From a virus: 64,000 nt of DNA. Location: IMG/VR virus record IMGVR_UViG_3300034418_007369, positions 16,292 to 80,291 of that record; one strand, 5' to 3'. The notes under the pieces were generated by a model that saw only the letters and a program-made list of their open reading frames with translations, searched no databases and was not told the DNA's origin. The position numbers and the translations under genes were made by a program. Shown one piece after another: positions 1,148 to 48,206 of the stretch (position 1 is the first letter of the stretch; each line of letters starts with the position of its first letter).

Positions 1148-1163
1148 AACGATAGGACGATTG

Positions 1164-21796: not shown

Positions 21797-21797
21797 T

Positions 21798-25160: not shown

Positions 25161-25161
25161 C

Positions 25162-27402: not shown

Positions 27403-27729
27403 ATGAATAATTGCTCTTTTTTAGGCAAGCTCAAAGAGCCTGTCTTTTCTACAGTATCTAATGATGTTGATATGGTTAATTTTGTACTTGAAGTTGAAGA
27501 ATATAGAAAAAATAAATCTGGTCAAAAAACAAGACGTGTTGAAAATCTAACATTTGAAGCATGGCACACCGCCGCTATTACCCTGAGAGAAAAATTAAAT
27601 GTTGGCGATCTCGTTCTGGTAGAATGTACAGCCAGAAGCAAAAGAGACGAAGATGATTTTTGCTACTTTAGAGTCAATAGTTTCAAGATTTTTAACAAAG
27701 AAAGATACTCCACGCAATCGGAAGACTAA
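27403..27729 (+). CDS. ssb: single-stranded DNA-binding protein (OB fold)
   Basis: MNNCSFLGKL...FEAW...GDLVLVEC pattern of bacterial-type SSB; follows the polymerase. Confidence 0.7.
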   Translation: MNNCSFLGKLKEPVFSTVSNDVDMVNFVLEVEEYRKNKSGQKTRRVENLTFEAWHTAAITLREKLNVGDLVLVECTARSKRDEDDFCYFRVNSFKIFNKERYSTQSED

Positions 27730-29381
27730 TGAGAAAAAAGAAGATATTGTTTGTTTCTGAGGCTTCGTGGCTTAGTACCGGATATTCCGTATATACCAAG
27801 GAAGTTCTTAGTAGACTAAATCAGATAGAAGAATTTGAAGTTGCTGAACTAGCCTGCTATACGGACGCAGCAAATCCAAATATAAAAAAAACACCTTGGA
27901 AGGTATACGCCAATAAACCATTACCAGACGATCCAAATCTAAATATTTACAAATCTAACACAATTGCTCAATTTGGTGAATTATCATTTAATAGCGTACT
28001 GCTAGACTTTATGCCAGATATTGTGATGGATATTAGAGACTGGTGGATGCTAGAGTTTGAACAGCGCTCGCCTTTTAGAGACATGTTTCACTGGGCGATT
28101 ATGCCAACGGTAGACGCATCGCCACAAAATATGCAATGGATAAATACGTATGACTCTGCGGATTCCGTGTTTGCTTATTCTGAATTTGGAAGAGATACGA
28201 TGAGTCGTCAATGCGACACGATAAAGTTTGTTGATGTGGCGTCTCCGGCGGCCAGTAAGGTATTCAGTCCAGTAGATGATAAGCGCCAGCATAAGATTAA
28301 CATGGGCGTGTCCCCAGATAGTATTATAGTGGGAACCGTAATGAGGAATCAAAAAAGAAAACTATATCCAGATCTGTTTTCTTCATTTAGAAAATTTTTA
28401 GATATTGCAAATAAAGATAACGTGTTTTTATACGCGCACACCTACTATCCAGATGTTGGATGGGAGATTCCACAGCTAATACAAGAAAACGGTCTTTCTA
28501 ATCGCGTACTGATGACATATAAGTGTAAGAAGTGTGACACTATCAGTGTTGACTTTTTTCAGAATTCTGTTCAGGTATGTAATAAATGTAAGAGTTTGTC
28601 TAATCAGCTTGTTGGCATAGGCAATTCAATAGAAGAAAATAGACTCTCGCAGATTTACAATCTGTTTGATATTTATGTCCAATACGCAAACAGCGAAGGC
28701 TTTGGTATGCCGCAGCTTGAAGCGGCGCACTGCTCTCTTCCTGTTATTTCTACTTATTATTCTGCCATGCAGTCTGTAATAGACAATATTGGTGGAATCG
28801 GAATAGAGCCAATTTCATACTATAAAGAATGTGAAACGGGATGCAACAGGGCGGTTCCAGATAATGAGCTTTTTGTTCAGGCTTTACTAGACCTAATTTC
28901 ACGCCATGAAAACGATTCTAATTATTTGGTTGATCTGGGTAGGACCATTATGGAAAAAGCCAAACATCACTATACTTGGGATGCAGCTGCCGACAAGTGG
29001 GCTGCTAGATTTAAAGAGGTGGAACTAAAAGACCCAAAAGAAACTTGGCTGTCTCCATCAAAAATTAGAGTACCAAAAACTGAACTACCCGCCTCACTTA
29101 AAAACGCCAAAGAAATAACGGATTTTATTTTTAATAGTGTTTTGTGCAAGCCCGAATGGATCGGTAATCATATTTGGAGAAGGATGTTAAGAGATTTGAC
29201 ATTTGGCTATAAGTGCGAAAGTTCTAATAAAGAGTTTTACTTTAATGAGTCTCATAACAAATCTCAAAAATCAAGTTTGCCCTTTTCTCCTCAAGATGCA
29301 CTAAAAGAAATGTTAAACTTTAGAAATCAGATGAACTCTTGGGAACAGGCCAGATTAAGAAAAATCGGAGCAATAAAATGA
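27729..29381 (+). CDS. glycosyltransferase family 4 with inserted Cys4 zinc motif
   Basis: STGYS, VMRNQKRK, EGFGMPQLEAAHC; CKKC...CNKC insert. Confidence 0.88.
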   Translation: MRKKKILFVSEASWLSTGYSVYTKEVLSRLNQIEEFEVAELACYTDAANPNIKKTPWKVYANKPLPDDPNLNIYKSNTIAQFGELSFNSVLLDFMPDIVMDIRDWWMLEFEQRSPFRDMFHWAIMPTVDASPQNMQWINTYDSADSVFAYSEFGRDTMSRQCDTIKFVDVASPAASKVFSPVDDKRQHKINMGVSPDSIIVGTVMRNQKRKLYPDLFSSFRKFLDIANKDNVFLYAHTYYPDVGWEIPQLIQENGLSNRVLMTYKCKKCDTISVDFFQNSVQVCNKCKSLSNQLVGIGNSIEENRLSQIYNLFDIYVQYANSEGFGMPQLEAAHCSLPVISTYYSAMQSVIDNIGGIGIEPISYYKECETGCNRAVPDNELFVQALLDLISRHENDSNYLVDLGRTIMEKAKHHYTWDAAADKWAARFKEVELKDPKETWLSPSKIRVPKTELPASLKNAKEITDFIFNSVLCKPEWIGNHIWRRMLRDLTFGYKCESSNKEFYFNESHNKSQKSSLPFSPQDALKEMLNFRNQMNSWEQARLRKIGAIK

Positions 29382-31505: not shown

Positions 31506-31508
31506 TCC

Positions 31509-31931
31509 ATGAAAATATATTTATCAGAAAAAAAATTAACTAATGACGATTTTATTCATGTCTCTAGTATCATGCATCTTGATAATGCTGTATTAGATGG
31601 CGAGGCGACGGAAATTGTTGCAGACAGTTTTTTAAATCAATTTAAGATTGAAGATTTAGAAAAAGTCATACAAAAAATAGTAAGCAAAATGAGAATTAAA
31701 TCAGAAATTAGTATTCAGGGCAAAGACTTGGATATTTTGATCCTTAAATATAACCGGGGAGAAATTTCTATACAAGATTTAAACAGGGATCTTATTGGCG
31801 AATCGCCTGTGTCAAGTTTAATAAATGTAGAAACTCTTCAAGAAGCTCTACCAAAAAACATAGAGGTTTCTTACATGTCTGTAGACCAACAAACAGGAAA
31901 TTTTTTAATAAAAGGGAAAAGATCAAAATGA
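31509..31931 (+). CDS. hypothetical protein, degenerate methyltransferase-like fold
   Basis: DGEATEIVADSFLNQF...KMRIKSEISIQGKD resembles the post-motif-I half of type-11 MTases but lacks GxG. Confidence 0.4.
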   Translation: MKIYLSEKKLTNDDFIHVSSIMHLDNAVLDGEATEIVADSFLNQFKIEDLEKVIQKIVSKMRIKSEISIQGKDLDILILKYNRGEISIQDLNRDLIGESPVSSLINVETLQEALPKNIEVSYMSVDQQTGNFLIKGKRSK

Positions 31932-32722
31932 TGGAAATGAAATGTTCGGGTTGTGTTTTTACTAAAGTCAAGGACTCTAAACAGGCCGGATGCATGTTGA
32001 ATAGAATAGAGAAACTTCAAGAAACCAACACGGAAGAAAAGGACGGAGTAGAGTACAAGGTTTTAAAAAGATTTTGCAATACGCATCGCCCAGAGCGATG
32101 GCTACAAAAGCTCACGCTTGACAAGAGTCTAGACGCCACTAGCACTGCGCTCGAAGAAGTAAGACCAAGAGTTGGATTTATTGTTTATTTAGACCACTCA
32201 AAAGATAATCCGTTGACATGGCTTGAGTCAACTCTCATGGATATCAGAGATCAAACAGAGTCGGCTGCCAGATATGTGATTGTTGTTAACGAAAAAGTGG
32301 AATATAATCAACAAATTCATGATATGCTGCTGCTATTTTTCAATAAAGAAAAAACAGAGATTCACCTTTTACAATTATTAGAAGTACCTACAAATAAAAT
32401 ATGGATTGTTGATGAGTGCTTTCGGTTCGCTTTAAACGGATGGATTTATGTAACAACATCTGGCGAAGCGGTTAGTAGAAGCCTATTACAAGACATGCAT
32501 GAGCACATTAATATAAAAATGAAAAGACTGTCTGTAGTTAAGCCATACGAAGGTATTAATGGGCTTCTATTTCAAACGGCGCTATTTAAATATTTAAATG
32601 GCAATAAAACAAAGATTTGGGATGAAGATAAAAAAGACTCTAGACTATTTCTAGATAAAATAAAAGATCTAGACGCCGAGAATGATTGTATTTTAGAATG
32701 GAGTGATGTCAATGTTGCCTAA
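31928..32722 (+). CDS. hypothetical protein (Cys-rich N-terminus, degenerate GT-A-like region)
   Basis: CSGCVF...C...C N-terminus; located inside the GT operon. Confidence 0.5.
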   Translation: MMEMKCSGCVFTKVKDSKQAGCMLNRIEKLQETNTEEKDGVEYKVLKRFCNTHRPERWLQKLTLDKSLDATSTALEEVRPRVGFIVYLDHSKDNPLTWLESTLMDIRDQTESAARYVIVVNEKVEYNQQIHDMLLLFFNKEKTEIHLLQLLEVPTNKIWIVDECFRFALNGWIYVTTSGEAVSRSLLQDMHEHINIKMKRLSVVKPYEGINGLLFQTALFKYLNGNKTKIWDEDKKDSRLFLDKIKDLDAENDCILEWSDVNVA

Positions 32723-33467
32723 AGTAGCCATCATATGTGCAAATTATAATTATGGCAGGTATATTGTTGCCGCCATGAATAGTATAATAAATCAGACATA
32801 CGAAGGTGAGCTTCGTTTGTATGTTGTAGACGATGGATCGTCTGACGATTCATGGGATAAAATTTGCGGCTATGTTAATAGCTATAGTCACCCAGCAGAA
32901 GGTCAAGATAAGATTTACACGAAGCGAATCGAAAACTCTGGTGCTAGTGTCGCCCGCAATACAGCAATTGAAATGTGCTGGGACTGGGCCGATATCATTG
33001 GCGTTCTCGATGCGGATGACGAATACAAACCAAGAAAAGTAGAAAAGTTTGTAAACAAGCTGATTGAATATCCTGAGATTGGCGCGGTTTATGGGGACTA
33101 TGATATTCATAAAACATATGCAGGTAAATCATATACAAAAGAAGAGTTCAAGCCATCATATTCTAGAGAAGAACTGTTAAAAAATTGCATCGTTCATAGC
33201 AACTCTTTGATAAAAAAAGAATTTTTACAATCCGTCAGATTGCCCAATGGAGAATTTTTTGACAGTAGGCTGCATGGGCCAGCCAGTAAAGGATTTATCG
33301 GATGCACAGAGGATTACGATCTATGGCTCAGGATATCTAAAGTTTGTATCATTTGCCACGTTCCAGAATCGTTATCTATTGTTAATGAATCCGGTCAAAA
33401 TCAGTCCATGAAAATGACAAACGATGTCTTTAAACAAAACGCCGAAATATTAAGGAGTAGGTTTTGA
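32712..33467 (+). CDS. glycosyltransferase family 2
   Basis: ICANYNYGRYI, VVDDGSSDDS, NSGASVARN, LDADD, EDYDLWLR. Confidence 0.92.
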   Translation: MLPKVAIICANYNYGRYIVAAMNSIINQTYEGELRLYVVDDGSSDDSWDKICGYVNSYSHPAEGQDKIYTKRIENSGASVARNTAIEMCWDWADIIGVLDADDEYKPRKVEKFVNKLIEYPEIGAVYGDYDIHKTYAGKSYTKEEFKPSYSREELLKNCIVHSNSLIKKEFLQSVRLPNGEFFDSRLHGPASKGFIGCTEDYDLWLRISKVCIICHVPESLSIVNESGQNQSMKMTNDVFKQNAEILRSRF

Positions 33468-34180
33468 ACAGGTCTACAACATCAATTAAGAAAAATATAA
33501 CAGAGAAAGGATTGTCTGTTGTTATTCTTTCTGCTGGCGCAGGATCTAGAATTAGGTCTAATGAACCAAGAAGCCTAATAAAAGTTAAAGATGACTATCT
33601 TATAAATCATCAGATAAAAGCTGTTAAAAGCATATTTAAAAATGTAGAAGTTATTGGCGTTTTTGGAACACATCTAGAAAAAATAATAAAAAAGCTAGAT
33701 AACAAAATAAGGGTTGTAGAAAACCAATTACATAATACAACAAACAACTCAGAAAGCATGAGGCTTGGTTTAAATAACTGCCTATATGACAATGTTTTGT
33801 TTATTCATGGAGATATTTTTTTTAAAAGCTGCTTACTAGAAAGTGCAGACTTTAATAAATCGTTTTTAGTGGTTGATGCTAACCAAGACATGGAAGAAAA
33901 AGAAGTTGGGGTAACTATTAATAAAAAAGACGTTTCCATACTGTCATACGGGCTGCCAAAAAAATGGTGTCAAATCTGTTTTGTCACGGGTAAAGAACTA
34001 AGAATTCTTAAATCAATATTTTTAAAGTTTCAGGCAGTAGATAAAAAAATGTTATCTTTTGAGATTTTAAACAAAGTCATAGAAAACGGCGGATCTTTCC
34101 GGCATCATGAAAAAAAAGATTCGCACACTATAGAAATAGACTGCATCAAGGATTTAGAAAATGAAAATTTTAATTTGTAA
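33464..34180 (+). CDS. NTP transferase (LicC/MobA-like sugar- or choline-phosphate nucleotidyltransferase)
   Basis: ILSAGAGSRI...PRSLI, HGDIFF, IEIDCIKDL. Confidence 0.75.
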   Translation: MNRSTTSIKKNITEKGLSVVILSAGAGSRIRSNEPRSLIKVKDDYLINHQIKAVKSIFKNVEVIGVFGTHLEKIIKKLDNKIRVVENQLHNTTNNSESMRLGLNNCLYDNVLFIHGDIFFKSCLLESADFNKSFLVVDANQDMEEKEVGVTINKKDVSILSYGLPKKWCQICFVTGKELRILKSIFLKFQAVDKKMLSFEILNKVIENGGSFRHHEKKDSHTIEIDCIKDLENENFNL

Positions 34181-35198
34181 CGACGGACGACACGCCCATT
34201 TCTTTCAAAGAATGTCGTGGGCTAATGCTCTTACGGCGGCTGGCCATCAGGTGTTCCTTTGGGAAAAGGATACTATGCCAGCTTTTGACGCTTTTGATAC
34301 GTGTGAGCCAGATATTTTTCTTGGGCAGGCTTATAATCTAGACGAAGCGACGATTAAATGCGTCAAAGAAAGACCACACCTAAGAGTTGGACTGCGCGCC
34401 GGAGACTGGGGCGATCAAACAAAAGATATAGATCAAAATAAATTTAACATCTTGACACTTACAACAAAAGAAGTTAAGATGCTAGAAGAATTAAAAAACG
34501 AAACAGGCGCTCCTGATTTTGTTCATATACACTATCCAGAATGGGCGGTAGAACAAACACATAATCGCTTTGAAAGTATCGGAATCAAAGCTGTATCACT
34601 AATGATGTGCGCAGACACTACCGTATATGGAGGCGGACAAAGAAGAGAAGAGCTTATGTGCGATATAGGATTTGTTGGAGGATACTGGCCCTATAAAGGA
34701 CAGATTATAGATCAATATCTTATGCCTCTTTTACATCCTGTTGGCAGATATAATGTAAAAATATTCGGCAATCAACCTTGGCCTGCAAATCAATATTGCG
34801 GATTAATACAAGACAATAAAGTAAAAGACTTATTTGTTTCTTCTAAAATATGTCCAAACCTTAGTGAGCCTCACGCGCACGAGTTTGGATTTGATGTAAA
34901 TGAAAGAATATTTAAAGTTTTATATGCTGGCGGCTTCTGTATCACTGATAATGTAGAAGGGTATAAAATGTTTGGTGATGGCATTGTAATTGCAGATTCC
35001 CCAAAAGATTTTACAGACAAAGTAGAATACTACGCAAACACTGATGCCGGAACAATGGATAGGTCAGAGATAATCCAAAAAGGACAAACACTTGTGAAAG
35101 AAAATCACACAAACTATCATAGGACCGCACAGATTATGGATTTATTTGGCTACAAAGACGAAGCTAAAAAACTATTAGGGATTGCTAATGAACTCTAG
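34161..35198 (+). CDS. CgeB-like glycosyltransferase (GT-B)
   Basis: CDIGFVG, SSKICPN, VNERIFKV...GGFCITD, HTNYHR. Confidence 0.8.
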   Translation: MKILICNDGRHAHFFQRMSWANALTAAGHQVFLWEKDTMPAFDAFDTCEPDIFLGQAYNLDEATIKCVKERPHLRVGLRAGDWGDQTKDIDQNKFNILTLTTKEVKMLEELKNETGAPDFVHIHYPEWAVEQTHNRFESIGIKAVSLMMCADTTVYGGGQRREELMCDIGFVGGYWPYKGQIIDQYLMPLLHPVGRYNVKIFGNQPWPANQYCGLIQDNKVKDLFVSSKICPNLSEPHAHEFGFDVNERIFKVLYAGGFCITDNVEGYKMFGDGIVIADSPKDFTDKVEYYANTDAGTMDRSEIIQKGQTLVKENHTNYHRTAQIMDLFGYKDEAKKLLGIANEL

Positions 35199-36150
35199 AA
35201 AAATTGTAATTACTGGCGGTACTGGATTTCTTGGTAAGGCCGTTCGTAAAGCGTTGTTGGATTCTAATGATACTATTATTCCACTTAGAGGAAGAGGTGA
35301 ATGGGACTTAACAAAACAAAAACATGTTGAATATTTGTTTGCTCATAATACTCCAGATGTCATTGTGCATCTCGCTGCTAGAGTTGGCGGAATAGGGGCG
35401 AATAAGGAAAACCCCGGATTGTTCATGTATGAGAATCTGGCGATGGGGATGAACTTGATTGAAACGGCCAGAAAATATGGCGCGCTAAAGAAGTTTGTTA
35501 TGGTTGGGACAGTGTGCGCATATCCAAAGTTTACGCCGGTTCCATTCAAAGAAGAAGATATATGGAACGGCTATCCAGAAGAGACCAATGCGCCTTATGG
35601 GATCGCTAAAAAAGCCCTTATGGAAATGCTTGCGGCTTATAATGCTCAATATGGACTTAACTGTACTAATCTCATTCCTGTAAATATGTATGGGCCGCAT
35701 GATAATTTTCACCCAAGCATTAGTCATGTTATTCCCGCCATTATTTTAAAGATAGATAAAGCTATTCAAAATAAAGAAAGTTCTGTAGAACTCTGGGGAA
35801 CTGGAAACGCCAGTAGAGAATTCCTTTATGTGGATGACTGTGCCGAAGCTATTAAACTAGCAATAGATACAGACACCACACCAGACCCAATCAACATTGG
35901 AACAGGTGTAGAGTTTACAATATCCGCTCTAGCCGAGAAGATAGCATCAATTATGGGATATGAAGGCGATGTCTTATTCAATGCAAACGGAATGGATGGG
36001 CAGCCGCGACGATGTTTAGACACCTCGAAAGCAAAAGACGCGCTAGGATTTGAGGCGCAAACAGGTTTAATATCAGGACTGAAACAAACTATTGAATGGT
36101 ACAATAATAATAAAGAAAAATTTACTAGTTACTTTAAGGATATTGACTAA
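35188..36150 (+). CDS. fcl: GDP-L-fucose synthase (GDP-4-keto-6-deoxymannose epimerase/reductase)
   Basis: TGGTGFLG, HLAARVGGIGAN, TVCAYPK, YGIAKK, YGPHDNF, WGTGNASREFLYVDD, DGQPRR. Confidence 0.92.
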   Translation: MNSRKIVITGGTGFLGKAVRKALLDSNDTIIPLRGRGEWDLTKQKHVEYLFAHNTPDVIVHLAARVGGIGANKENPGLFMYENLAMGMNLIETARKYGALKKFVMVGTVCAYPKFTPVPFKEEDIWNGYPEETNAPYGIAKKALMEMLAAYNAQYGLNCTNLIPVNMYGPHDNFHPSISHVIPAIILKIDKAIQNKESSVELWGTGNASREFLYVDDCAEAIKLAIDTDTTPDPINIGTGVEFTISALAEKIASIMGYEGDVLFNANGMDGQPRRCLDTSKAKDALGFEAQTGLISGLKQTIEWYNNNKEKFTSYFKDID

Positions 36151-36152
36151 AC

Positions 36153-36629
36153 ATGAAAATATTAGTTACTGGACTAGAAAGCTCTTGTACAAAAATAGTG
36201 TCTAAAATTTTTAGTGATAATCTTAAAATAGATGGATATGAAAAATATAATGGAGTAATGAGAATAAGCGATGATAAAAACCTAGTTTCACACATGAGCT
36301 TACCCTCTGGACAGAGAACGTTTTTCTATATACCAAAAATTAAAGATTGGGATATTATAACTATCGCTACTAGGGATTATAATTGTTCTTTAAAATCAAA
36401 AATAAATAACCATCAGCCAATAGTTAAAAATGCAATTGCCGAGCACGATAATGGCGCATATATACTATCTGAAATGATAAAATTTGATAACGTGCATGTT
36501 TTTTCTTATGAAAGCTGGTTTTTACTTGGGGATCTATATGTTAAGAAATTTTTAAATCAGTTCAATATAGACTACTCAAAAAAAATAAATCCCGAAAACG
36601 TTAATAAAAAATACATGAAAGATTTTTAA
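36153..36629 (+). CDS. P-loop sulfotransferase-like protein
   Basis: ILVTGLESSCTK resembles the 5'-PSB loop; TRD...S resembles 3'-PB; SYE motif. Confidence 0.45.
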   Translation: MKILVTGLESSCTKIVSKIFSDNLKIDGYEKYNGVMRISDDKNLVSHMSLPSGQRTFFYIPKIKDWDIITIATRDYNCSLKSKINNHQPIVKNAIAEHDNGAYILSEMIKFDNVHVFSYESWFLLGDLYVKKFLNQFNIDYSKKINPENVNKKYMKDF

Positions 36630-38211: not shown

Positions 38212-38221
38212 GGATTAGAAT

Positions 38222-39079: not shown

Positions 39080-39094
39080 TAGATGGGAGAAGAT

Positions 39095-39403
39095 ATGGCA
39101 GATACGCTTGGCGGTCTTATTGATAAACTGATAACCGTAGACATGAAAATGTGGAACAACCAAGAGTTTCTTTATGAAGTTCGTAGAATTCCATTTGAAG
39201 AATTTAAAGAAAAGTATACTAGCGATGACACTAAACAACTAGCTCTTTTTTCTTCTCTCAAAAAATGTTGTGATCTTAACTTCCAAAGGAATGTGTTGAT
39301 AGATGAAATAGATGAAATGATCGCGTCGGTTTTAGAGGCTCTTTCCTCTGGGGAAAAAATAGATTATGAAAAATTCATCCAGAGAAAACACAAAACATAC
39401 TAA
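39095..39403 (+). CDS. hypothetical helical protein
   Basis: GGAG RBS; TLGGLIDKL...LNFQRNVLIDEID pattern. Confidence 0.65.
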   Translation: MADTLGGLIDKLITVDMKMWNNQEFLYEVRRIPFEEFKEKYTSDDTKQLALFSSLKKCCDLNFQRNVLIDEIDEMIASVLEALSSGEKIDYEKFIQRKHKTY

Positions 39404-39521
39404 AAAGATACAAGAAATAGCAGAACATATCAAATATAAATATGGACTGTCTGAGTGGAGCGCAAAAGTTTTAGTCAATGATATTGTAGAATTATATAAT
39501 AGATCAAAAAGTGAGGAATAA
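39366..39521 (+). CDS. small hypothetical protein (51 aa, absent from the ORF track)
   Basis: ATG 39366 opens MKNSSRENTKHTKKIQEIAEHIKYKYGLSEWSAKVLVNDIVELYNRSKSEE; its TAA abuts ATG 39522. Confidence 0.5.
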   Translation: MKNSSRENTKHTKKIQEIAEHIKYKYGLSEWSAKVLVNDIVELYNRSKSEE

Positions 39522-40091
39522 ATGTTTAACGATGGTTATTTTTCTGAAAATGATATAAAAGATAGATTTAAGTCTGTTGGTAAAAATGTTTTAATTTCTA
39601 AGAACTGCACAATTATAGGAACAGAAAACATAGAAATAGGTAATAATGTTAGAATTGATGACTACTGTTGTATTATGGTTGGTAGTGACGGGGCAAGTCT
39701 TAAAATTGGCTCATATGTTCACATCGCGGCAAATTGTTATCTGTCTGCGAAAAATGGAATTATAATGGAAGATTTCACTGGAATATCTCAAGGCGTTAAG
39801 ATATATAGTAATTCAGATGATTACTCTGGAGCATTTTTAACAAACCCAACCGTTCCGTCTGAGTTTACAAACGCTACCGGGAGAACCGTCACGTTGAAAA
39901 AACATGCGATAGTCGGTTCTGGGGCTGTTATCTTGCCGGGAGTCACCATACATGAAGGCACATCTGTAGGGGCTTTATCATTAGTAACTAAAGACTTAAA
40001 AGAATGGAGTATTTATTTTGGTATTCCAGCAAAGAGGTTGAAGAACAGATTAAAAAATCTTTTAGACTTAGAAAAAAAACTTGAGGAATAA
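39522..40091 (+). CDS. hexapeptide-repeat (left-handed beta-helix) sugar acetyltransferase
   Basis: IEIGNNVRIDD, IGSYVHI, VGSGAVILPGVTI, GIPAK. Confidence 0.9.
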   Translation: MFNDGYFSENDIKDRFKSVGKNVLISKNCTIIGTENIEIGNNVRIDDYCCIMVGSDGASLKIGSYVHIAANCYLSAKNGIIMEDFTGISQGVKIYSNSDDYSGAFLTNPTVPSEFTNATGRTVTLKKHAIVGSGAVILPGVTIHEGTSVGALSLVTKDLKEWSIYFGIPAKRLKNRLKNLLDLEKKLEE

Positions 40092-40092
40092 T

Positions 40093-40764
40093 ATGAAAAT
40101 ATCGTCTATAATAGAAGCTGCATACAAATTGCCGGATAAATTTTACGCTTTAGAGTGTGGAGCCTGTAGACCGGAGTATATTGAAACAGAAGACTGGAGA
40201 AGAAAGCATGAAGTCTGGCTACTTGAACCAAATTTAGAAGTATACAATCAATTAAAATCATTAGATTATAAAGTACTTAATCTTGCGCTTTCAGATAATA
40301 ATCAAAAACAAACTTTTTATATTTCAAAATCTGAAGGGTTTTGTTATTTAGAATCATCAAGCTTAAACGATAGTCAAAAAAATAATGAGCAAGAATTACT
40401 AAGTTATGAGGTGGAGTGCATAACATACAAAAATCTACAAAAAAAACTAGGTATAATATATGACATTCTTATACTAGACATAGAAGGTCAAGAAGATAGA
40501 GTATTAAAAAATTTACTAACAATAGAAAAAAAATACTTACCTAAAATTTTATGTGTTGAGTGTGGATATGAATGGGAAGATAGAAAAAAAATATGTAAAA
40601 AACTTGGCTACAATTTAGATTTCTATTACTATAACAATGCCTATTTTTCTTTATGTAATACTTTTACAAAAGACATAAACACGATTGAGACGTATAATAA
40701 ATCTTGGCCTAACTGGGACTATAGCGGGAAAAGAATTTATGACAACGAAAATACCAATATATAA
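40093..40764 (+). CDS. FkbM-family methyltransferase
   Basis: LECGA, LLEPN, LNLALSD, LILDIEGQE. Confidence 0.8.
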   Translation: MKISSIIEAAYKLPDKFYALECGACRPEYIETEDWRRKHEVWLLEPNLEVYNQLKSLDYKVLNLALSDNNQKQTFYISKSEGFCYLESSSLNDSQKNNEQELLSYEVECITYKNLQKKLGIIYDILILDIEGQEDRVLKNLLTIEKKYLPKILCVECGYEWEDRKKICKKLGYNLDFYYYNNAYFSLCNTFTKDINTIETYNKSWPNWDYSGKRIYDNENTNI

Positions 40765-41812
40765 ACCCTACTTACCCAGCAAGTCTATAGAGTACGCAAA
40801 AGACGCAATAGACAGTGGCTGGGTGTCTTCTATTGGAGAATATGTAGAAAAAGCCACAGAGGAACTCAAGAAGCGCACAGGATCTAAATATGCAGTATTA
40901 GTGAATAATGGAACATCTGCTACTCACTTATGCGCTAGAGTTCTTAAAAGATGGCATCCTGAAACCAAAAGAGTGTTCTTGCCAAGCGCCTGCTATGTAG
41001 CGGCGTACAATTCGCTGCTATACGATGATAATGAATGGGTACTACAGCCCGTGGATCTAGACACAGAAACTTGGAATATGCGTATTCCAGAATACGAAGA
41101 GGGTGACGCTATCATGGCTGTCCACAACCTCGGCAATATCATGCCGCTTAACAGTATTGAATGTCCAGTCATAGAGGACTCCTGCGAAACTTTATTTGGA
41201 AAAACCAAACAGAAACAATCGCTATGCGCCTCTCTTTCTTTTTTTGGCAACAAAAACATGACGAGCGGCGAAGGTGGAGCCGTGCTGACGGACGATGAAG
41301 ATATTTTTAAATTCTTGACAAAGTTAAAAGGTCAAGGACAAACATCTAGAAGATATATTCATGATGAACTCGGCTACAATTATAGGATGACCAATATTCA
41401 AGCCGCACTACTACTGGGCCAGCTAGAAGAGTGGGATAATATATATGGCGGAAAACGAGTATTGTTTCTGAAATATAACGAAGCGTTTAAAGACCATCCA
41501 AATATAATTCCACAGAAAGTGGTTTGCGATCACTCTAAATGGATGTATGGGGTCAGAATTCTTGGGTCTAAATCTTACGAAGATAACAAACGTATTTTTG
41601 ACGCCCATAATATAGAGACTAGACCAATGTTTTATTCTTTTAAACATCACAAACATTTAGACTTCTTGCACAATATGGCAGGAAGAACCCATGCAAACGC
41701 AACAAGGCTACATAACGAGATAGTAATTCTTCCATCATATCCAGAACTAACCAATGAAGAAGTAAGTCATATAACAGAAACAACATTAAGTATAGCGAGG
41801 CGAAATAAATGA
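40739..41812 (+). CDS. DegT/DnrJ/EryC1/StrS PLP aminotransferase (perosamine-synthase-like)
   Basis: SGWVSSIG, NNGTSA, IEDSCE, SFFGNKNMTSGEGG, GYNYRMTNIQAA, ETRPMF, LPS. Confidence 0.9.
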   Translation: MTTKIPIYKPYLPSKSIEYAKDAIDSGWVSSIGEYVEKATEELKKRTGSKYAVLVNNGTSATHLCARVLKRWHPETKRVFLPSACYVAAYNSLLYDDNEWVLQPVDLDTETWNMRIPEYEEGDAIMAVHNLGNIMPLNSIECPVIEDSCETLFGKTKQKQSLCASLSFFGNKNMTSGEGGAVLTDDEDIFKFLTKLKGQGQTSRRYIHDELGYNYRMTNIQAALLLGQLEEWDNIYGGKRVLFLKYNEAFKDHPNIIPQKVVCDHSKWMYGVRILGSKSYEDNKRIFDAHNIETRPMFYSFKHHKHLDFLHNMAGRTHANATRLHNEIVILPSYPELTNEEVSHITETTLSIARRNK

Positions 41813-42714
41813 TATACTTAGTCACGGGAGGCAGGGGTTTTATAGGGAGCCATTTTGTAGAAAAGGTTCTTGCCGATAATCACGAAGTTATTGATATAGA
41901 TAAAATGACCTATGCGGCCAGTAATAGTCTCCCTTGGGACAATAATCCTAATTATAAACATATAAAAAAAGACATATGCGAACTTAAACATCTACCATGC
42001 TGTGATATAATTGTAAATTTTGCAGCAGAATCGCACGTAGATAACTCAATTGAATCTCCGGGCGTCTTTCTGAAATCTAATACAGAGGGCGTTTTTAACT
42101 TATTAAACCTAATCAAAAACAAAACATATGAAAAACCAACCCTTGTCCATATCAGCACAGATGAGGTCTATGGCGAGGTCGCCCTAGATGAAGAAGAAAA
42201 AACAGAAGAAAGCATATTGAATCCGGGCAATCCCTACTCAGCAAGCAAAGCCGCTGCGGAAATGTTTATTTTTTCTTATGCCAAAACTCATGATATAAAC
42301 TATCATATAGTTAGAAGCGCAAACAACTATGGACCAAGACAGTTTCCAGAGAAGCTAATACCAAAAATTATAAAGCACCTAAAGACAAATAAAAAAATAC
42401 CAATACAGGGAGACGGCAGCAACATTAGAGACTGGCTGTATGTCGAAGATAACGCAGAAGCAATCTACAAAATAACTCAATACAATGGCAAAAACGAGAT
42501 ATGGAATGTATCTGCCTATAACTATCTTAAAAATACCGATGTCGTTAAAACAATATGTATGTGGATGGGCATTGAAAATTACGAGCAGCATATCGAATAT
42601 GTTGAAAACAGATTGGGACACGACTATAGATATTCCATATGCTCAGAAAAGATTAGACAAAAACTGAAATGGAAACCAGAACACGACTCTCTAACAAATT
42701 TTTTAGAGACCTAG
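41809..42714 (+). CDS. rmlB: dTDP-glucose 4,6-dehydratase
   Basis: TGGRGFIGS, DKMTYA, FAAESHVDNS, STDEVYG, PYSASKA, NNYGPRQFPEKLIP, GHDYRY. Confidence 0.95.
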   Translation: MIYLVTGGRGFIGSHFVEKVLADNHEVIDIDKMTYAASNSLPWDNNPNYKHIKKDICELKHLPCCDIIVNFAAESHVDNSIESPGVFLKSNTEGVFNLLNLIKNKTYEKPTLVHISTDEVYGEVALDEEEKTEESILNPGNPYSASKAAAEMFIFSYAKTHDINYHIVRSANNYGPRQFPEKLIPKIIKHLKTNKKIPIQGDGSNIRDWLYVEDNAEAIYKITQYNGKNEIWNVSAYNYLKNTDVVKTICMWMGIENYEQHIEYVENRLGHDYRYSICSEKIRQKLKWKPEHDSLTNFLET

Positions 42715-42741
42715 ACGAATAACAAAGAAAGGAAATACTAA

Positions 42742-43212
42742 ATGAAAATAGCGGCACTAACCGATAATTTAGCACCATCGCAAAAGTCTTTTTATTTAAT
42801 AAAAGAGTTCAACAAATTATCACAAAAAAGCAAAAACTCTTGCTGTGTTTTTACTAATATCTCTGGGTCTGCTGTTACTAAGCCGCTTTTTGCCTGCTAT
42901 AGCTCGGCGTTTTTGTCCGAATACAACGGGGCCGTAATTGCCACGTCTATAGCCGAAGCAAAAACCCTATTAGAAACGAGCAGTAGCGCTAAAAAATATT
43001 TATACCTATGGGAAACTGAATGGACAATGGCGCCAATCAATCACGACGCAGCGTGTAAAATAATGCGTAATCCAAGACTAGAAATAGTAGCCAGAAGCGA
43101 AAGCCACGCAAAAGCAATAGAAAATTTCTGTAACAGAAAACCCATTGAGATAGTTGATGACTGGAATAGCCATCAATTATTAAAACTTATCGGAGGACAA
43201 AATGAAAATTGA
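42742..43212 (+). CDS. hypothetical protein (resembles an isolated GT-B N-terminal half)
   Basis: AGGA RBS; IATS...KYLYLWE...IVARSESH pattern. Confidence 0.5.
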   Translation: MKIAALTDNLAPSQKSFYLIKEFNKLSQKSKNSCCVFTNISGSAVTKPLFACYSSAFLSEYNGAVIATSIAEAKTLLETSSSAKKYLYLWETEWTMAPINHDAACKIMRNPRLEIVARSESHAKAIENFCNRKPIEIVDDWNSHQLLKLIGGQNEN

Positions 43213-43972
43213 TGAAGAGTTTGTAATAAGCAGATATAGTGAAAATGAAAGCACGTACTCTATTGCTAAAGAACTTGGAACTTATCCTAAAAAGATAGAG
43301 CGTATTCTCAAGAAGAATAATATTCAGCTTAGAAGCAAGTCTGAGTCTCAAAAACTGGCTCTAAAAGCTGGAAGGTGCGAGCATCCAACAAAAGGAAAGA
43401 AAAGAACAAAAGAAGAAAAAGTTAATATTAGTGAGGGCGTATATAATAATTGGCAAACCAAAACCAAGGAGGAAAGAAAAGAAATATCCAGAAAAGCCAG
43501 ACAGCGCTGGGACGAAATTCCCGCAGACAAAAAGCGCGACATGATGGAGGCCGCTGGCAGGGCGCTTCATAAAACTTGTAGTGAAGGCTCTAAGGCAGAG
43601 AGATATCTCTACAGGCAAATGAAAGAAGAAGGTCGCGAAGTTGTCATGCATAAAAAGAATCTTATCAGTGGAAACTTTGAAATAGATTTGTTTTTACCAG
43701 ACATTAAGACTATAATAGAGATAGATGGACCACAACACTTTTTACCATTATTTGGTCAAGATAAATTAAAAGAAGTAATCAAGCTAGATTCTATCAAGAA
43801 TGGATTGCTTTTAGCTGAAGGATATTGTATAATTAGAGTAAAGTATATGCTGAAGGGATTGTCCCAAAAATCAGCTAGGACATTGTGGGAGCTTGTTTCT
43901 GAACAGCTATATAAAATTGACAAGAAATTTCCTCCCAAGGACAGACGTTTCATTGAATTGGAGATAAAGTAA
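43202..43972 (+). CDS. Vsr/DUF559-type endonuclease with N-terminal HTH and basic helical repeats (possible free-standing homing endonuclease)
   Basis: STYSIAKELGT HTH; KGKKRTKEEKVNIS (NUMOD3-like); SKAE, EIDLFLP, IEIDGPQHF, GYCIIRV. Confidence 0.7.
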   Translation: MKIDEEFVISRYSENESTYSIAKELGTYPKKIERILKKNNIQLRSKSESQKLALKAGRCEHPTKGKKRTKEEKVNISEGVYNNWQTKTKEERKEISRKARQRWDEIPADKKRDMMEAAGRALHKTCSEGSKAERYLYRQMKEEGREVVMHKKNLISGNFEIDLFLPDIKTIIEIDGPQHFLPLFGQDKLKEVIKLDSIKNGLLLAEGYCIIRVKYMLKGLSQKSARTLWELVSEQLYKIDKKFPPKDRRFIELEIK

Positions 43973-44730
43973 TGAATTCTAGTACAGATTTGTTTGATAG
44001 AGAAGACATGATTGAGAATGTAATTGAAGTCGTACAAGAGGATAGGCCACCATATGGTTCTAAAGAATGGAACGACTTTGTTATGGAAAAGTTTGAACCT
44101 CACGAATTGATTGATGGAAATCCATTGGTTCATGGGCTACGAAGAATTGCAGAAGATTTGCTTGGAGATATTGTTGTTAGCAGGCCAACTCATGTGCTGG
44201 CTTCTGACGACCCTCATGGCCCCGGTAGGGCTACGATTGGTTTCGAGGTTGTGTTTGACTGGATGAACTCTGGTCAGCTTAGGACATACGGCGATGTTGC
44301 AGATGTGTGGCATGGCAATACAGACGATCTATTTTGCGCTCATCCCGCCGCTACAGCGGCTACGAAAGCTGAGTCAAGATGCCTAAGAAAAGCCCTTAAA
44401 ATACGCTGTGTGGCTGCTGAAGAGATCGCTAGAAACAAAGATGTGGCGGCTATCGTGCGTCAGTCTATCAAGGTTCAACCGAGCGATGGAGACTGGACAG
44501 AAGAAGATCCAATCACCACTCCACAGTTGAATTTTATTGATGGAAAATGTAAACAACTGAATGTAGACGTTTTGGCTTTTATTAATCAAGGAGAAAAGAC
44601 ATATAAAAATATTACAGAAGTAACAAAGATGACAGCATCTAAAATGTTGAAGCTGTTAAATGAGTATCAGAATGGTTCTAAAGAAATGCCCGAAGAAGTT
44701 AAGGGCTACAAAAGTAATTGGAGAGAATAA
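43972..44730 (+). CDS. putative single-strand annealing protein (Rad52/Sak-like)
   Basis: HGLRRIA, ATAATKAESRCLRKAL..AEE core; C-terminal ITTPQLNFI...ASKML domain. Confidence 0.55.
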   Translation: MNSSTDLFDREDMIENVIEVVQEDRPPYGSKEWNDFVMEKFEPHELIDGNPLVHGLRRIAEDLLGDIVVSRPTHVLASDDPHGPGRATIGFEVVFDWMNSGQLRTYGDVADVWHGNTDDLFCAHPAATAATKAESRCLRKALKIRCVAAEEIARNKDVAAIVRQSIKVQPSDGDWTEEDPITTPQLNFIDGKCKQLNVDVLAFINQGEKTYKNITEVTKMTASKMLKLLNEYQNGSKEMPEEVKGYKSNWRE

Positions 44731-45059
44731 TGAAGCTAAATTATAAACTTGGAAATCTTACTGTTGAATTTGAGTGCGATACTGTTAAAGAAGTTTTTAA
44801 TCAGTTGTCTACTTTTCAAGAGGTTTTCGGAGAAACGGAATGTGGAAAATGTGGATCTGAGAATCTAAGATTTGTTGTCCGCGAAAACGATGGCAACGAA
44901 TACTATGAGATCAGATGCAACGACTGTGGTGCAAGACTGTCATTCGGCGCGATGAAAAAGGGTGGAGGACTATTCCCGAAACGCAAAGACGGAGACGGAA
45001 ATTGGCTACCAGACAAGGGGTGGCAAAAGTGGAATAATCAAACTAAAAAATTGGAATAA
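44730..45059 (+). CDS. zinc-ribbon protein
   Basis: CGKCGS...CNDCGA; TAATG coupling. Confidence 0.7.
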   Translation: MKLNYKLGNLTVEFECDTVKEVFNQLSTFQEVFGETECGKCGSENLRFVVRENDGNEYYEIRCNDCGARLSFGAMKKGGGLFPKRKDGDGNWLPDKGWQKWNNQTKKLE

Positions 45060-45060
45060 A

Positions 45061-45927
45061 ATGAATATAATAATTTTTGGAGGCTCTGGCTACGTTGGAG
45101 CCTCCTTTTTAAAAAAACTTAAAACCGCTAATCATAACATAGATTCTGTATCAAGAAAAGACTGCGATCTTCTTTATGAAGAAAGCGTTTATAATTATTT
45201 GAAAATTAAAAAGCCAGATTATGTTATAAACTGCGCTGGATATACTGGCAAGCCAAATGTAGATGCCTGCGAAAACAATAAATCAGATTGTATAGCTGGT
45301 AATATAACCATACCAAGCATACTAGCAAGATGCTGCAAAAACCTTGGAATAACATGGGGGCATGTGTCATCTGGATGTATATATACGGGAAGAAACAAAG
45401 ATGGAAATGGTTTTACAGAACTAGATTTGCCAAACTTTTCTTTTAGGCAAAATAATTGCAGCTTTTATTCTGGAACCAAGGCTCTTTCCGAAGAGATTAT
45501 TTTAGATTATAATAATTGTCATATTTGGAGGTTAAGAGTCCCATTTTCAAATATCTCTGGAAACAGAAATTATATATCTAAAGTTATGAACTATAGCAAA
45601 CTTTTAGACGTAGAAAATAGCATCTCAAACATTGAAGAATTTGCTCAATGCGCCATAGACTGCATGGAAAAGTCATTACCGCTAGGTATTTATAATCTTA
45701 CAAATCCGGGATCTATAACAACAAAAAGGATCACCGAATTACTGAAAGAATACAATATCTGCAATAAAGAATTTGAATTCTTTGAATCTGAGGACGAATT
45801 CATGACAAATGCAGCCATCGCGCCAAGATCAAGCTGCGTGTTAGATAGCTCTAAAGCCATATCGCTTGGCCTAGAGTTGCTTCCGGCAGAAGAATCAGTT
45901 ATCAAGTGTTTAAAAAATTGGACATGA
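45061..45927 (+). CDS. rmlD: RmlD-superfamily NDP-4-keto-6-deoxyglucose reductase (NRS/ER-like epimerase-reductase)
   Basis: GGSGYVG, INCAGYTGKPNVDACE, SSGCIY, PNF...SFYSGTK, LRVP, RSSCVLD. Confidence 0.82.
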   Translation: MNIIIFGGSGYVGASFLKKLKTANHNIDSVSRKDCDLLYEESVYNYLKIKKPDYVINCAGYTGKPNVDACENNKSDCIAGNITIPSILARCCKNLGITWGHVSSGCIYTGRNKDGNGFTELDLPNFSFRQNNCSFYSGTKALSEEIILDYNNCHIWRLRVPFSNISGNRNYISKVMNYSKLLDVENSISNIEEFAQCAIDCMEKSLPLGIYNLTNPGSITTKRITELLKEYNICNKEFEFFESEDEFMTNAAIAPRSSCVLDSSKAISLGLELLPAEESVIKCLKNWT

Positions 45928-45928
45928 T

Positions 45929-46489: not shown

Positions 46490-47785
46490 TTATCTGGCCT
46501 CAACCCTAAACAGAAATTGAACCTCGTGACATGTGTTTTGAATAAATCTATAAATATCTTCATCGGCAAATTTAGGAAATAATTGTTTGGCCCTATCGAA
46601 CCATTGAGTAGGAATATATTGCTTACTTTGAAGTTTTAGTTTTTTATTCATATCGTGCCACCAAGCCTCTTCAAACTCATCAAAGTGCTGAATCATATGC
46701 TCGCTAATCACATGAAGGTGTCCCGGACACATCGCCATCTCTTGCCCAAAATGAGGAACTTTAATTGTTACACTCGCTCCAACTCTACAAATACGCGCAA
46801 TATCTCTAATCAAAATAGAAACATTTGGCACATGCTCTAAACAATGAGATGAATATACCTCGTCAACGAAATCATCTGGTAAAGGTATCCCCATCGAAAA
46901 ATCTGCCTGAATATCTACCCTTGGGTCATCCAGTATATCACAATTTATAAAACCCTCCCTTGGGTAAATACCTCCACCAATATCAATTTTTATACCTTGA
47001 GAAAAATCGAATTTAGATTTTAGCTTTTGTAGCATTTCTTCACTTAACATGAGCCTCATAATCTCCTCTCTTTTTAGGCAGGGATTGTAGTCTTTACCCC
47101 TGTAAATTTTCCAAAATCTAGAACAGTATGCATTAGAACAATCTTCCGGCACCCCTTCTGGGGCCAGTTTTATTAGCGGTAATAGGTTGTAACCGTGCTC
47201 AACAATATATTGAACATCGAGATAATTATGTATGTGATGTAGATCAATACATTCATCAAGTTTTCCATATCTGTCGATTTTATCATTGATAAAACTATCT
47301 ATTTTATTTTCATGTACAACATGAACCAAATCATAAACATTATCATAAGCCCTACCCCTCGCGTCTGACGATCTAGAAAAAACATATACACATTCGTCAT
47401 CGTATGAATGATTACAAATATAGGACACGAAGTCTTCTTCCATAATAAGGTCCGATCTAATCAAAATAGTTAATTTTTTTGACAGTTCACTTAAAGCAAA
47501 GTGGGCCGTAGAAAACTGTAAAGAATCTTTCTCGTCTATGAGCAGTATATCTTTCAATAGCGGGAAGTCTTTTAAAGATTCTAGAACCTCGGATGGAGTA
47601 GAATAGTATGTAGCAAAATAAACATCTACATCATATTTTTTAGATAGTTTTTTGACAAGGTTTTCGTAATGAACACGAACCTGAGAAAAATCTATGGTGT
47701 AAGGCCACCACAAAGAACCATGAAAAGGGATTCTATTTTCTTTATAGAGATAACCTCTAATAATAAGATTAAGCCTCTTTTCCAT
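46490..47785 (-). CDS. fusion of an N-terminal GT-like/unknown domain and a type-11 methyltransferase
   Basis: C-terminal DIGGG...NCD...PLPDDFVDEVYSSHCLEH; N-terminal LIIRG...DVYFATY...RSDL. Confidence 0.7.
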   Translation of the reverse strand: MEKRLNLIIRGYLYKENRIPFHGSLWWPYTIDFSQVRVHYENLVKKLSKKYDVDVYFATYYSTPSEVLESLKDFPLLKDILLIDEKDSLQFSTAHFALSELSKKLTILIRSDLIMEEDFVSYICNHSYDDECVYVFSRSSDARGRAYDNVYDLVHVVHENKIDSFINDKIDRYGKLDECIDLHHIHNYLDVQYIVEHGYNLLPLIKLAPEGVPEDCSNAYCSRFWKIYRGKDYNPCLKREEIMRLMLSEEMLQKLKSKFDFSQGIKIDIGGGIYPREGFINCDILDDPRVDIQADFSMGIPLPDDFVDEVYSSHCLEHVPNVSILIRDIARICRVGASVTIKVPHFGQEMAMCPGHLHVISEHMIQHFDEFEEAWWHDMNKKLKLQSKQYIPTQWFDRAKQLFPKFADEDIYRFIQNTCHEVQFLFRVEAR

Positions 47786-48206
47786 GCTTTAGCACTCTCT
47801 TCTTTATTTCGGAAGAGCTTATACCCTTCGTATATGGGATATAAACTAAAACAATTTTATTCAAGTCTAACCACTCTTGAGAAAATCTCATTTGAGAATA
47901 GTAGTCTTTGTTAACCCAGTCGTCGCCAATGGCTATAATATGAGGACGAACACTCATAATAGCCGGTTTACTATCGGCGCCAAAAGTGTTTTCTATAATA
48001 TCATCAACATACTGACAATGAAGTAAAGCCAGTCTTCTCTCTTCATAAGAAAAAACCGGCTCACTTTTGTATGACCGAATAAAACTATCCGTATTTAAAG
48101 AGACGACAACTCTATCCGAAATCTGCTTACACTTCTTTAAAAAATTAAAATGACCATAGTGCAGCAGATCGAAAGTCCCGCCGGTATAAAGAACCCTCTG
48201 AGACAT
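47769..48206 (-). CDS. cytidylyltransferase (TagD/glycerol-3-phosphate cytidylyltransferase-like)
   Basis: TGGTFDLLHYGH (HxGH), GDDW, YTKGISSS. Confidence 0.88.
   Translation of the reverse strand: MSQRVLYTGGTFDLLHYGHFNFLKKCKQISDRVVVSLNTDSFIRSYKSEPVFSYEERRLALLHCQYVDDIIENTFGADSKPAIMSVRPHIIAIGDDWVNKDYYSQMRFSQEWLDLNKIVLVYIPYTKGISSSEIKKRVLKHGKEA

Follow-up and report, generated by a model that had tools for sequence, protein, structure and literature searches.

The window analysed here is a 64,000-nucleotide stretch of DNA, bases 16292-80291 of an 80,291-bp IMG/VR record (IMGVR_UViG_3300034418_007369), and belongs to an uncultured aquatic tailed phage (lytic, in the mechanism proposed below) that carries about 25 soluble genes for making and attaching sugars. 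All coordinates are window positions. A dense run of these genes lies at 27729-48209 and is divided into a core of ten genes, found in all six genomes compared, and two islands of variable content. The reading that we favour, tentatively and at a little less than an even chance, is cytoplasmic glycosylation of a phage-made protein; the sugar acceptor, the glycan itself and any benefit to the phage are what we infer from the genes. An acceptor of this kind would require no lipid carrier, flippase or polymerase. It is favoured because the set looks self-contained throughout the lineage's gene map, because the variable genes are linked to a conserved phage protein of 320 residues (open reading frame (ORF) 320, ORF320) on the strand of the tail genes, and because a homologue of the first glycosyltransferase (GT) of the cluster sits between portal and capsid genes in Synechococcus phage S-CBS4. 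In addition, the inner ten genes are conserved to a degree resembling the replisome, which suggests a fixed, phage-borne acceptor, since host acceptors would be expected to differ.

The contig was estimated by CheckV to be 52% complete, that is, about half of a genome, and the records of five relatives (G001-G005; 59-116 kb, G005 being 59 kb and G001 116 kb; none complete) were therefore added to the comparison. Genes were called with Pfam and NCBIfam; since all NCBIfam scores fell below the equivalog cut-offs, families rather than exact products are assigned. The cluster sits between two convergent blocks, a replication operon (+ strand) and a tail operon (- strand). The former, at 8.5-27.7 kb, encodes ribonucleotide reductase (RNR), UvsX-like recombinase, DnaB, primase, deoxynucleoside monophosphate (dNMP) kinase, exonuclease, DnaE and SSB, and the latter, at 49-64 kb, a tape-measure protein and large tail proteins. 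The relatives carry TerL and a capsid protein, both PHROG-confirmed in G002 only. RNR, UvsX, DnaB, primase and a split DnaE upstream, the tape-measure and tail genes downstream, and TerL and capsid genes in the relatives bear out the bacteriophage origin given in an earlier annotation, made from the letters of the window alone (hereafter the original prediction).

Core, islands and the sugars they would make

The core spans 27729-37477, and its ten genes are 40-76% identical across the six genomes, comparable to the replication proteins. They are listed here together with ORF158, which lies among them:

27729..29381, + strand: core gene 1, a GT4 of 550 amino acids (aa) with a four-cysteine insert, first gene after ssb (Glycos_transf_1, E 1e-7; phrog_2170, E 2e-17)
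29339-30454, + strand: core gene 2, a GT4 of 371 aa (Glycos_transf_1, E 2e-16)
30444-31505, + strand: core gene 3, a GT4 of 353 aa (Glycos_transf_1, E 7e-18)
31509 onwards (within 31509..32722), + strand: ORF140, no Pfam or PHROG match
31928-32722, + strand: ORF264, probable divergent GT-A/GT2-like transferase, no Pfam or PHROG match, in all five relatives
32703..33467, + strand: core GT2 (Glycos_transf_2, E 1.5e-20), no hydrophobic segment, 56-75% identity in all relatives
33464..34180, + strand: MobA/GlmU-N-like sugar-phosphate nucleotidyltransferase of the core (NTP_transf_3, E 5e-9; weak GlmU/IspD-type matches)
34161..35198, + strand: core CgeB-like GT (Glyco_trans_1_2, PF13524, E 1.6e-18), 58-71% identity in all relatives
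35182..36150, + strand: core Fcl, GDP-L-fucose synthase-like epimerase/reductase (NF047922, E 1e-86, 291 bits against a cut-off of 500; Epimerase, E 8e-59)
36153..36629, + strand: ORF158, outside the core, an indel gene peculiar to this phage
36629..37477, + strand: last core gene, weakly GT2-like, 282 aa (Glycos_transf_2, E 0.008, below cut-off), 42-54% identity in 5/5 relatives

Core gene 1 is 58-68% identical in all five relatives, and its residues C266, C269, C284 and C287 are invariant. Its AlphaFold2 (AF2) model (predicted local distance difference test, pLDDT, 72.6) matches the GT-B/GT4 enzymes GlgM, MshA and chlorovirus NY2A 3oy2 at TMt of about 0.7. Many related contigs stop inside this gene. 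Core genes 2 and 3 (53-61%) and Fcl (66-76%) likewise have homologues in 5/5 relatives, and ORF140 is kept in four, while the fifth record has a 29% match (in L015) that was found separately. ORF264 lies near GT2 clusters in the ESM Atlas (feature score 0.92-0.93, structure TM 0.5-0.6), which is taken as a lead only. For ORF158 no homologue was found in G001-G005, and a contig from a marine run joins 36123 to 36630, omitting the gene.

Downstream of the core, two islands flank a conserved block:

37435..42714, + strand: island 1, with three unknown ORFs (37435, 38222, 39083) and the next four sugar genes
39522-40091, + strand: hexapeptide acetyltransferase (Pfam/NCBIfam)
40081-40764, + strand: FkbM methyltransferase (Pfam/NCBIfam)
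40685-41812, + strand: DegT aminotransferase (Pfam/NCBIfam)
41809-42714, + strand: RmlB (Pfam/NCBIfam)
42742..45059, + strand: conserved four-gene block (156 aa; 256 aa, DUF559/endonuclease-like; 252 aa; 113 aa, zinc ribbon)
45062-48209, + then - strand: island 2, with the next four genes
45062..45927, + strand: RmlD-like nucleoside diphosphate (NDP)-sugar reductase (RmlD_sub_bind, E 3e-21; TIGR01214, E 4e-19, below cut-off)
45929-46489, - strand: Methyltransf_24 protein, 186 aa (Pfam)
46490-47785, - strand: Methyltransf_11 protein, 431 aa (Pfam)
47769-48209, - strand: TagD-like cytidylyltransferase, 146 aa (Pfam; TIGR01518 glycerol-3-phosphate cytidylyltransferase, E 8e-25, below cut-off)

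Other sugar genes fill the slot of island 1 in G001 (13 kb) and G002 (10 kb). Across the relatives' islands, 87 ORFs match 63 Pfam families, mainly of sugar chemistry: DegT and GT2 (five matches each), Gmd/epimerases, Sulfotransfer_2 and cupins (four each), HAD, FkbM, formyltransferases and GT10 fucosyltransferases. The GC content of the islands is 33-35%, against 38-42% elsewhere. Two related contigs (L014 and L015) have neither the acetyltransferase and FkbM genes, nor RmlB, nor any of island 2, and in other samples there are contigs that jump over 36123-36630 or 36117-39067 or that diverge from the window inside island 1. Since contigs from other samples break or differ in the islands, these vary among co-occurring phages in nature.

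The proteins of the block between the islands are 46-87% identical in the relatives. The second matches DUF559 (E 3e-4) and phrog_559 HNH endonuclease (E 2e-10), and the Zn_ribbon_8 match of the last is below cut-off. In a marine run (X13) the summed depth of the block was 5-10 times that of its flanks. Judged by its sequences, the block is not recognisably linked to glycans, and the glycan run of about 20 kb (27729-48206) put forward in the original prediction is therefore retained as a dense run of sugar genes less some 2.3 kb (42742-45059). The reductase next to the block most likely starts at the ATG at 45062, just past the stop codon of the zinc-ribbon gene, rather than at 44962, and has no full-length homologue in the relatives. 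A hairpin at the junction of the block and island 2 (45079-45105; 12 pairs, then a T-run) was considered as a terminator and dropped, as it falls within the sequence coding for the NAD-binding motif (GGSGYVG) of the reductase; its presence there may be coincidental, or the element may serve both purposes.

Pfam recovered all the cluster transferases listed in the original prediction (three tandem GT4, GT2, weak GT2-like and CgeB-like) as well as the outlying GT4 (at 1161) and GT47/RXYLT1-like (at 22523) genes, and Pfam/NCBIfam matches agree with its two cluster nucleotidyltransferases, Fcl, RmlB, RmlD-like enzyme, aminotransferase and acetyltransferase. Three of its four methyltransferases were found (FkbM, Methyltransf_24 and Methyltransf_11), and none of the remaining ORFs matched as a fourth. 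A sulfotransferase-like gene had also been proposed and had no match in the window, Sulfotransfer_2 occurring only in the relatives' islands; the supposed GT-like gene at 50201 gave no family match, even with a 20-sequence profile. ORFs 31509, 36153, 37435, 38222, 39083, 42742, 43972, 50201 and 51349 had no Pfam match up to E 5, and several of them had none in PHROG and PDB sequence/profile searches either.

In the proposed mechanism, RmlA (encoded at 21780) and RmlB would produce dTDP-glucose and, from it, dTDP-4-keto-6-deoxyglucose; DegT and the hexapeptide acetyltransferase would yield an N-acetylated amino-dideoxyhexose, and the RmlD-like reductase a reduced 6-deoxyhexose. No 3,5-epimerase was recognised on the contig. 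Fcl would supply a GDP-fucose-type sugar, for which it would need Gmd, an enzyme that the phage lacks. The remaining two nucleotidyltransferases may activate further substrates (giving a CDP-linked alcohol phosphate or another activated sugar), and about ten soluble GTs would assemble the glycan, to be O- or N-methylated by the three methyltransferases. On a conserved acceptor of the phage, the inner part of the glycan would be the work of the ten core genes, to which the two swappable islands would add lineage-specific outer sugars and decorations, thereby diversifying the particle surface. ORF320, which heads the minus-strand island genes behind a promoter-like motif, would be the acceptor or a partner. 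The methylated, acetylated deoxysugar glycan originally predicted fits these enzymes at the family level only, as a methylated N-acetylated amino-dideoxy sugar plus fucose.

Export, priming and the choice of acceptor

All ORFs of at least 50 aa were subjected to a Kyte-Doolittle hydropathy scan. On the 80-kb contig no ORF had more than two hydrophobic segments, and the cluster genes had none, apart from one borderline internal stretch. Among the five relatives no ORF had more than four, and none was Wzx-, Wzy- or permease-like; the ORFs with three to four segments were of 140-169 aa or encoded tape-measure proteins, those with four being a 141-aa ORF, a probably spurious antisense ORF and a tape-measure gene. 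By hydropathy, no multi-spanning flippase, polymerase, ligase or ABC permease was found on the contig or in the five relatives (the ABC ATPase family was not searched separately). PF02397 (Bac_transf) had no match in the contig or in G001-G005, and PF00953 (Glycos_transf_4, WecA/MraY-type) and PF04138 (GtrA) had none in G001-G005, with control genomes positive in each case; on the contig, no ORF could be a WecA, since none has multiple transmembrane (TM) segments. The scan and the PF02397 search thus uphold, for the 80-kb contig, the claim that multi-spanning export proteins and an initiating phosphoglycosyltransferase are absent. Nor did a flippase or polymerase gene, which would have pointed to a captured host locus, turn up on the contig or in the five incomplete relatives. 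As for what these records cover, the gene order is terminase-sized gene, early genes, replication, glycan cluster and tape-measure protein in G001, and RNR, glycan cluster, tail, head and TerL in G002; read by synteny, the two together appear to tile the gene map of the lineage.

Compared with an O-antigen or capsule locus, the cluster has the NDP-sugar genes and several GTs and lacks priming and multi-spanning export functions. It does not resemble a gtrABC module either, GtrA being absent from G001-G005 and the GT2 at 32703-33467 having no hydrophobic segment. Features of virion glycosylation that are present include soluble GTs unaccompanied by export genes, a position adjoining the tail operon and lineage-specific island content.

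The same genes may instead serve host-envelope remodelling, in which phage enzymes, working at the membrane's inner face, would extend or re-decorate lipid-linked O-antigen, lipooligosaccharide, capsule or teichoic-acid intermediates that the host primes, flips and ligates. The changed cell surface might, for example, block superinfection or stop progeny from re-adsorbing. Both the process and such an effect are regarded as unlikely on balance, if with an appreciable chance of being right. O-antigens are made by the same enzyme families, the TagD-like cytidylyltransferase would suit the attachment of glycerol phosphate to envelope polymers, most genes run in the direction of the early and middle replication genes, and the lack of a Gmd here is in keeping with reliance on host precursors. 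This is opposed by the six records, which seem to cover the gene map between them and yielded no priming transferase, flippase or GtrA and no polymerase, ligase or permease, and by the position of the minus-strand genes of island 2 behind a conserved phage protein on the tail strand. Moreover, the ten-gene inner set is kept across diverged phages, yet their host acceptors would differ.

Several points weigh against a phage-made acceptor. With phage and host uncultured, sugar on protein is a prediction from the genes; the contig holds about half a genome, and no relative's record is complete. GT4 and GT2 enzymes acting on undecaprenyl-linked intermediates are likewise TM-free, so the solubility of the transferases does not discriminate, and priming, flipping and ligation could come from the host. 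Most cluster genes belong to the replication (+) operon and not to the late genes, and the fold and virion place of ORF320 are at candidate level. Gmd and a 3,5-epimerase are missing here, which makes the phage dependent on host sugar metabolism. Finally, host O-chain remodelling is the published reading of the pelagimyophage and cyanomyophage islands (PMC7029224; PMC12801897).

The original prediction had placed the glycan on virion proteins and/or DNA. DNA hypermodification, with sugars on modified bases evading restriction as in T-even and TET-glycosyltransferase phages, is judged very improbable. GT and dNMP kinase genes near replication genes, both features of DNA glycosylation, are indeed present: a T4 gp1-type dNMP kinase (PF21448, E 5e-15, 19960-20772) and the GT47-like transferase, either of which could also have other roles, lie within the replication operon, and the cluster directly follows ssb and dnaE. 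Phage DNA-glycosylating GTs are moreover diverse (Pyle 2024, as cited in PMC12619734). However, an enzyme making a hydroxymethyl acceptor was not found: in the six incomplete records (contig and five relatives), PF00303 (thymidylate-synthase-family hydroxymethylase) had no match, and PF12851 (Tet_JBP) had only an 11-bit match in G002 against a cut-off of 34.9 bits, so that no enzyme is seen to create a hydroxyl acceptor on DNA. About ten GTs, several NDP-sugar routes and O-methylation also go far beyond known DNA glycans, and the 2-oxoglutarate (2OG) oxygenase of the window is of prolyl-hydroxylase type and not conserved. The DNA half of the prediction is thereby weakened, and the protein half is argued from gene order, conservation and analogy.

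Some other cytoplasmic acceptor, such as a host pilin, flagellin or S-layer protein before its export, a free or secreted oligosaccharide, or a small molecule, is considered improbable as well. In its favour, the top structural matches of the modelled first GT include the small-molecule enzymes MshA, BshA, GlgM and sucrose-phosphate synthase, which may hint at such a substrate, and the flagellin and spore-crust glycosylation islands of bacteria contain DegT, acetyltransferase, FkbM and CgeB-type genes and are not known to include a flippase. Nothing specific points to an acceptor of this sort; that the core is conserved throughout an extensive phage lineage and linked both to ORF320 and to tail genes speaks for one made by the phage.

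ORF320 and the minus-strand genes

At the junction of island 2 and the tail operon lie the following features:

48206..49168, - strand: ORF320, Ser/Gly/Thr-rich, 320 aa, conserved, fold not assigned
49190..49197, - strand: TGTGTATA promoter-like motif, 22 nucleotides (nt) before ORF320, followed by a strong AAAGGAGA ribosome-binding site
49221..49781, - strand: prolyl-4-hydroxylase-type 2OG-Fe(II) oxygenase (2OG-FeII_Oxy_3, E 1e-14), end of the tail operon, accessory

ORF320 consists of 15% serine, 13% glycine and 8% threonine and has a homologue in 4/5 relatives; the record of the fifth, G005, stops before that point. In total 693 homologues were found (226 representatives at 50% clustering), some of them forms of about 210 aa without the middle part; among the 120 matches listed, identity was at least 60% and Tara ocean samples were included. 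An identical protein is encoded on a 136-kb contig (136,468 bp), and proteins of relatives on contigs of 158,880 and 148,313 bp. ORF320 had no match in Pfam, PHROG or PDB, and its AF2 model (pLDDT 41) was unusable for a fold search. Two fusions were seen, with ORF320-type sequence at the C-terminal end of a protein of 1109 aa and at the N-terminal end of one of 800 aa; fibre-type structural domains tend to occur in this way. ORF320 is accordingly a candidate structural protein and a candidate glycan acceptor or partner.

The TGTGTATA motif has six matches in the window against 1.7 expected, and on the contig it occurs ten times, seven of them shortly before a start codon. In the form TGTGTAT(A/T) it precedes seven starts by 20-80 nt, with copies also at 2824 and 4266 (+ strand) and upstream on the contig. 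TGTGTAT is found upstream of the ORF320 homologue in five of six genomes, the sixth having TGCGTAC (one mismatch), and a GGAGA ribosome-binding site precedes the gene in all six. TGTGTAT(A/T) is probably a phage promoter element; sigma-70 promoter and terminator scans gave chance level only. The minus-strand genes of island 2 adjoin ORF320 downstream, on the same strand as the tail genes, and gene order and the motif together suggest that they form one transcription unit with it, in which ORF320 is probably highly expressed.

In the relatives, the slot downstream of ORF320 is occupied by GT7/MGAT2-like and GT10-like genes (G001), a GT2 (G004) or a ConA-like lectin-domain protein (G002). The G001 genes (L101:4347-7331) encode a 464-aa protein with GT7 beta-4-galactosyltransferase domains and an MGAT2-like region, and a 529-aa protein with a GT10 fucosyltransferase domain, that is, eukaryote-type transferase families in a phage.

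A more specific proposal, which we hold to be fairly unlikely, is that a complex heteroglycan is built wholly in the cytoplasm on the ORF320 family, with an inner part specified by the core and a hypervariable outer layer specified by the cassettes. If this is true, giant-virus fibril glycosylation would have a counterpart in bacteriophages, and the phage would wear a coat, antigenic or adhesive, that diversifies in the manner of bacterial O-antigen.

The 2OG oxygenase upstream of ORF320 occurs among the relatives in G002 only and has no TET/JBP match. The tape-measure protein contains proline-rich PKPT/PTAP repeats (12 Pro in 30 residues), and the chlorovirus prolyl-4-hydroxylase acts on PAPK repeats. 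Hydroxyproline-linked glycans, of which the oxygenase and the tape-measure repeats would be the mark, were considered and rejected, since an oxygenase present in only 1/5 relatives cannot belong to a core mechanism.

The ORF at 50201-51313 (- strand, 370 aa), placed between a 1770-aa tail protein and ORF320, combines four CxxC pairs within residues 1-105 with a C-terminal domain rich in Trp. Pfam recognises no domain in any of its 23 homologues, and G002 has a longer form of 640 aa. Pattern searches with this ORF and a 515-aa tail protein found no related loci.

Known systems, lineage and outlying genes

Large phage glycan gene sets and virion glycosylation have both been published; what is added here is the clean split into core and islands, the lack of export genes and the linkage to ORF320. 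In the Megavirinae, fibril glycosylation is encoded by clade-specific clusters of 6-33 genes (PMC10117803). Like these viruses and the chloroviruses, the present phage has virus-encoded NDP-sugar routes for bacterial-type amino and deoxy sugars and many soluble GTs without export machinery, and a chlorovirus GT (3oy2) is among the best structural matches of the first GT. Unlike them, it is a tailed phage known from its genes alone, whereas their hosts are eukaryotic and their glycans have been chemically shown on fibrils or capsid; peculiar to the present lineage is the arrangement of a core with two islands that flank a conserved but unrelated block.

The cyanomyophages P-SSM2 and S-SCSM2R carry at least 20 glycan genes, with 13 GTs and TagD (PMC12801897), and the pelagimyophage host-recognition cluster has a comparable set (PMC7029224). 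These phages (P-SSM2, S-SCSM1 and S-SCSM2R among the cyanomyophages) are likewise aquatic, and their sets of at least 20 glycan genes include nucleotide-sugar epimerases, TagD and as many as 13 GTs; the sets are located next to tail-fibre genes in hypervariable parts of the genome, and their role is predicted. They are, however, T4-like myoviruses with a family-B polymerase, whereas the present lineage has a split DnaE and a strictly conserved ten-gene core.

In mycobacteriophages of the Che8 type, the subunits of capsid and tail tube are modified by soluble GTs that the phage encodes beside its structural genes (Freeman 2023, as cited in PMC12619734). One to a few GTs act there on host NDP-sugars, in contrast to the roughly ten GTs, own NDP-sugar enzymes and methyl/acetyl decoration of the present phage. 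The nearest cultured-phage homologues of the first GT are only 21-23% identical and belong to S-CBS4, where the gene lies between portal and capsid genes beside a galactosyltransferase and a methyltransferase, and to TJE1, where it accompanies a nucleotidyltransferase, an epimerase and a methyltransferase beside head/packaging genes. Unlike the present cluster, these are modules of three to five genes, and their function is predicted.

Again and again, abundant aquatic phages carry large and as yet unexplained sets of glycan genes, and the present lineage offers a clean case, with a self-contained-looking set, a fixed core against swappable islands and a candidate partner protein at the junction. 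Should the product coat the virion, the particles would bear a diversifying sugar coat, which would have a bearing on host recognition, on particle decay and grazing, and on the reading of viral lipopolysaccharide 'auxiliary metabolic genes' in ocean surveys. The core genes and ORF320 being small and soluble, the acceptor question is approachable without host culture.

No cultured relative was found by megablast of 20 kb against the phage collection, in which the C-terminal half of DnaE was at most 31.5% identical to anything and tblastn of ORF320 and the CgeB-like GT returned nothing. IMG/VR holds 203 DnaB relatives, and ORF320 homologues occur in Tara ocean samples. The same phage was detected in 19 DNA runs from 12 studies (labelled freshwater for 11 and marine for 1). 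In a salt-marsh RNA run, a few short contigs of the phage made up a small share, too sparse for transcription to be read. No tRNA, which was sought as a clue to the host, was found in the window.

DnaE is split into two ORFs (531 and 523 aa; 23349-27391), between which lie a 71-aa ORF and a DnaQ/RNase_T-type exonuclease; the layout is kept in the relatives. The tape-measure ORF (59715-63932, - strand) is cut by the window end at 1405 aa or more, and its G002 homologue (L104 to L105; G002 56684-65446, - strand) has 2920 aa. As the protein is about twice as long in G002, tails would be very long and variable in this lineage.

Three further sugar genes lie outside the cluster:

1161..2228, + strand: outlying GT4, 355 aa (Glyco_trans_1_4, E 3e-16; Glycos_transf_1, E 2e-15), with a 61% homologue in G001
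21780..22520, + strand: RmlA-like glucose-1-phosphate thymidylyltransferase (NTP_transferase, E 1e-49; TIGR01207 rmlA, E 3e-57, below equivalog cut-off)
22523..23404, + strand: GT47/RXYLT1-like GT in the replication operon (RXYLT1_C, 35.8 bits against a cut-off of 27; Exostosin_GT47, 29 bits, below cut-off)

The GT47-like gene is present in G002, G003 and G005 and absent from G001 and G004. The RmlA-like gene, which the original prediction had not listed, is missing with base precision from L002-L006, the five closest relatives (80-94% identical in DNA); there 21797 is followed at once by 22529, and the exonuclease stop codon runs directly into the GT47-like gene. By sequence comparison, this indel reflects the recent acquisition or loss of one sugar gene within the replication operon. 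The gene gives no clue to the host, its best cellular match being 45% identical, to a Paenibacillus. In G002, a second sugar set lies past the terminase (L106:9982-15489, 89.9-95.5 kb) and comprises two epimerases, one of them a nucleotide-sugar epimerase (phrog_540, E 7e-82), together with an RmlA-like gene, so that glycan genes in this lineage are not limited to one locus.

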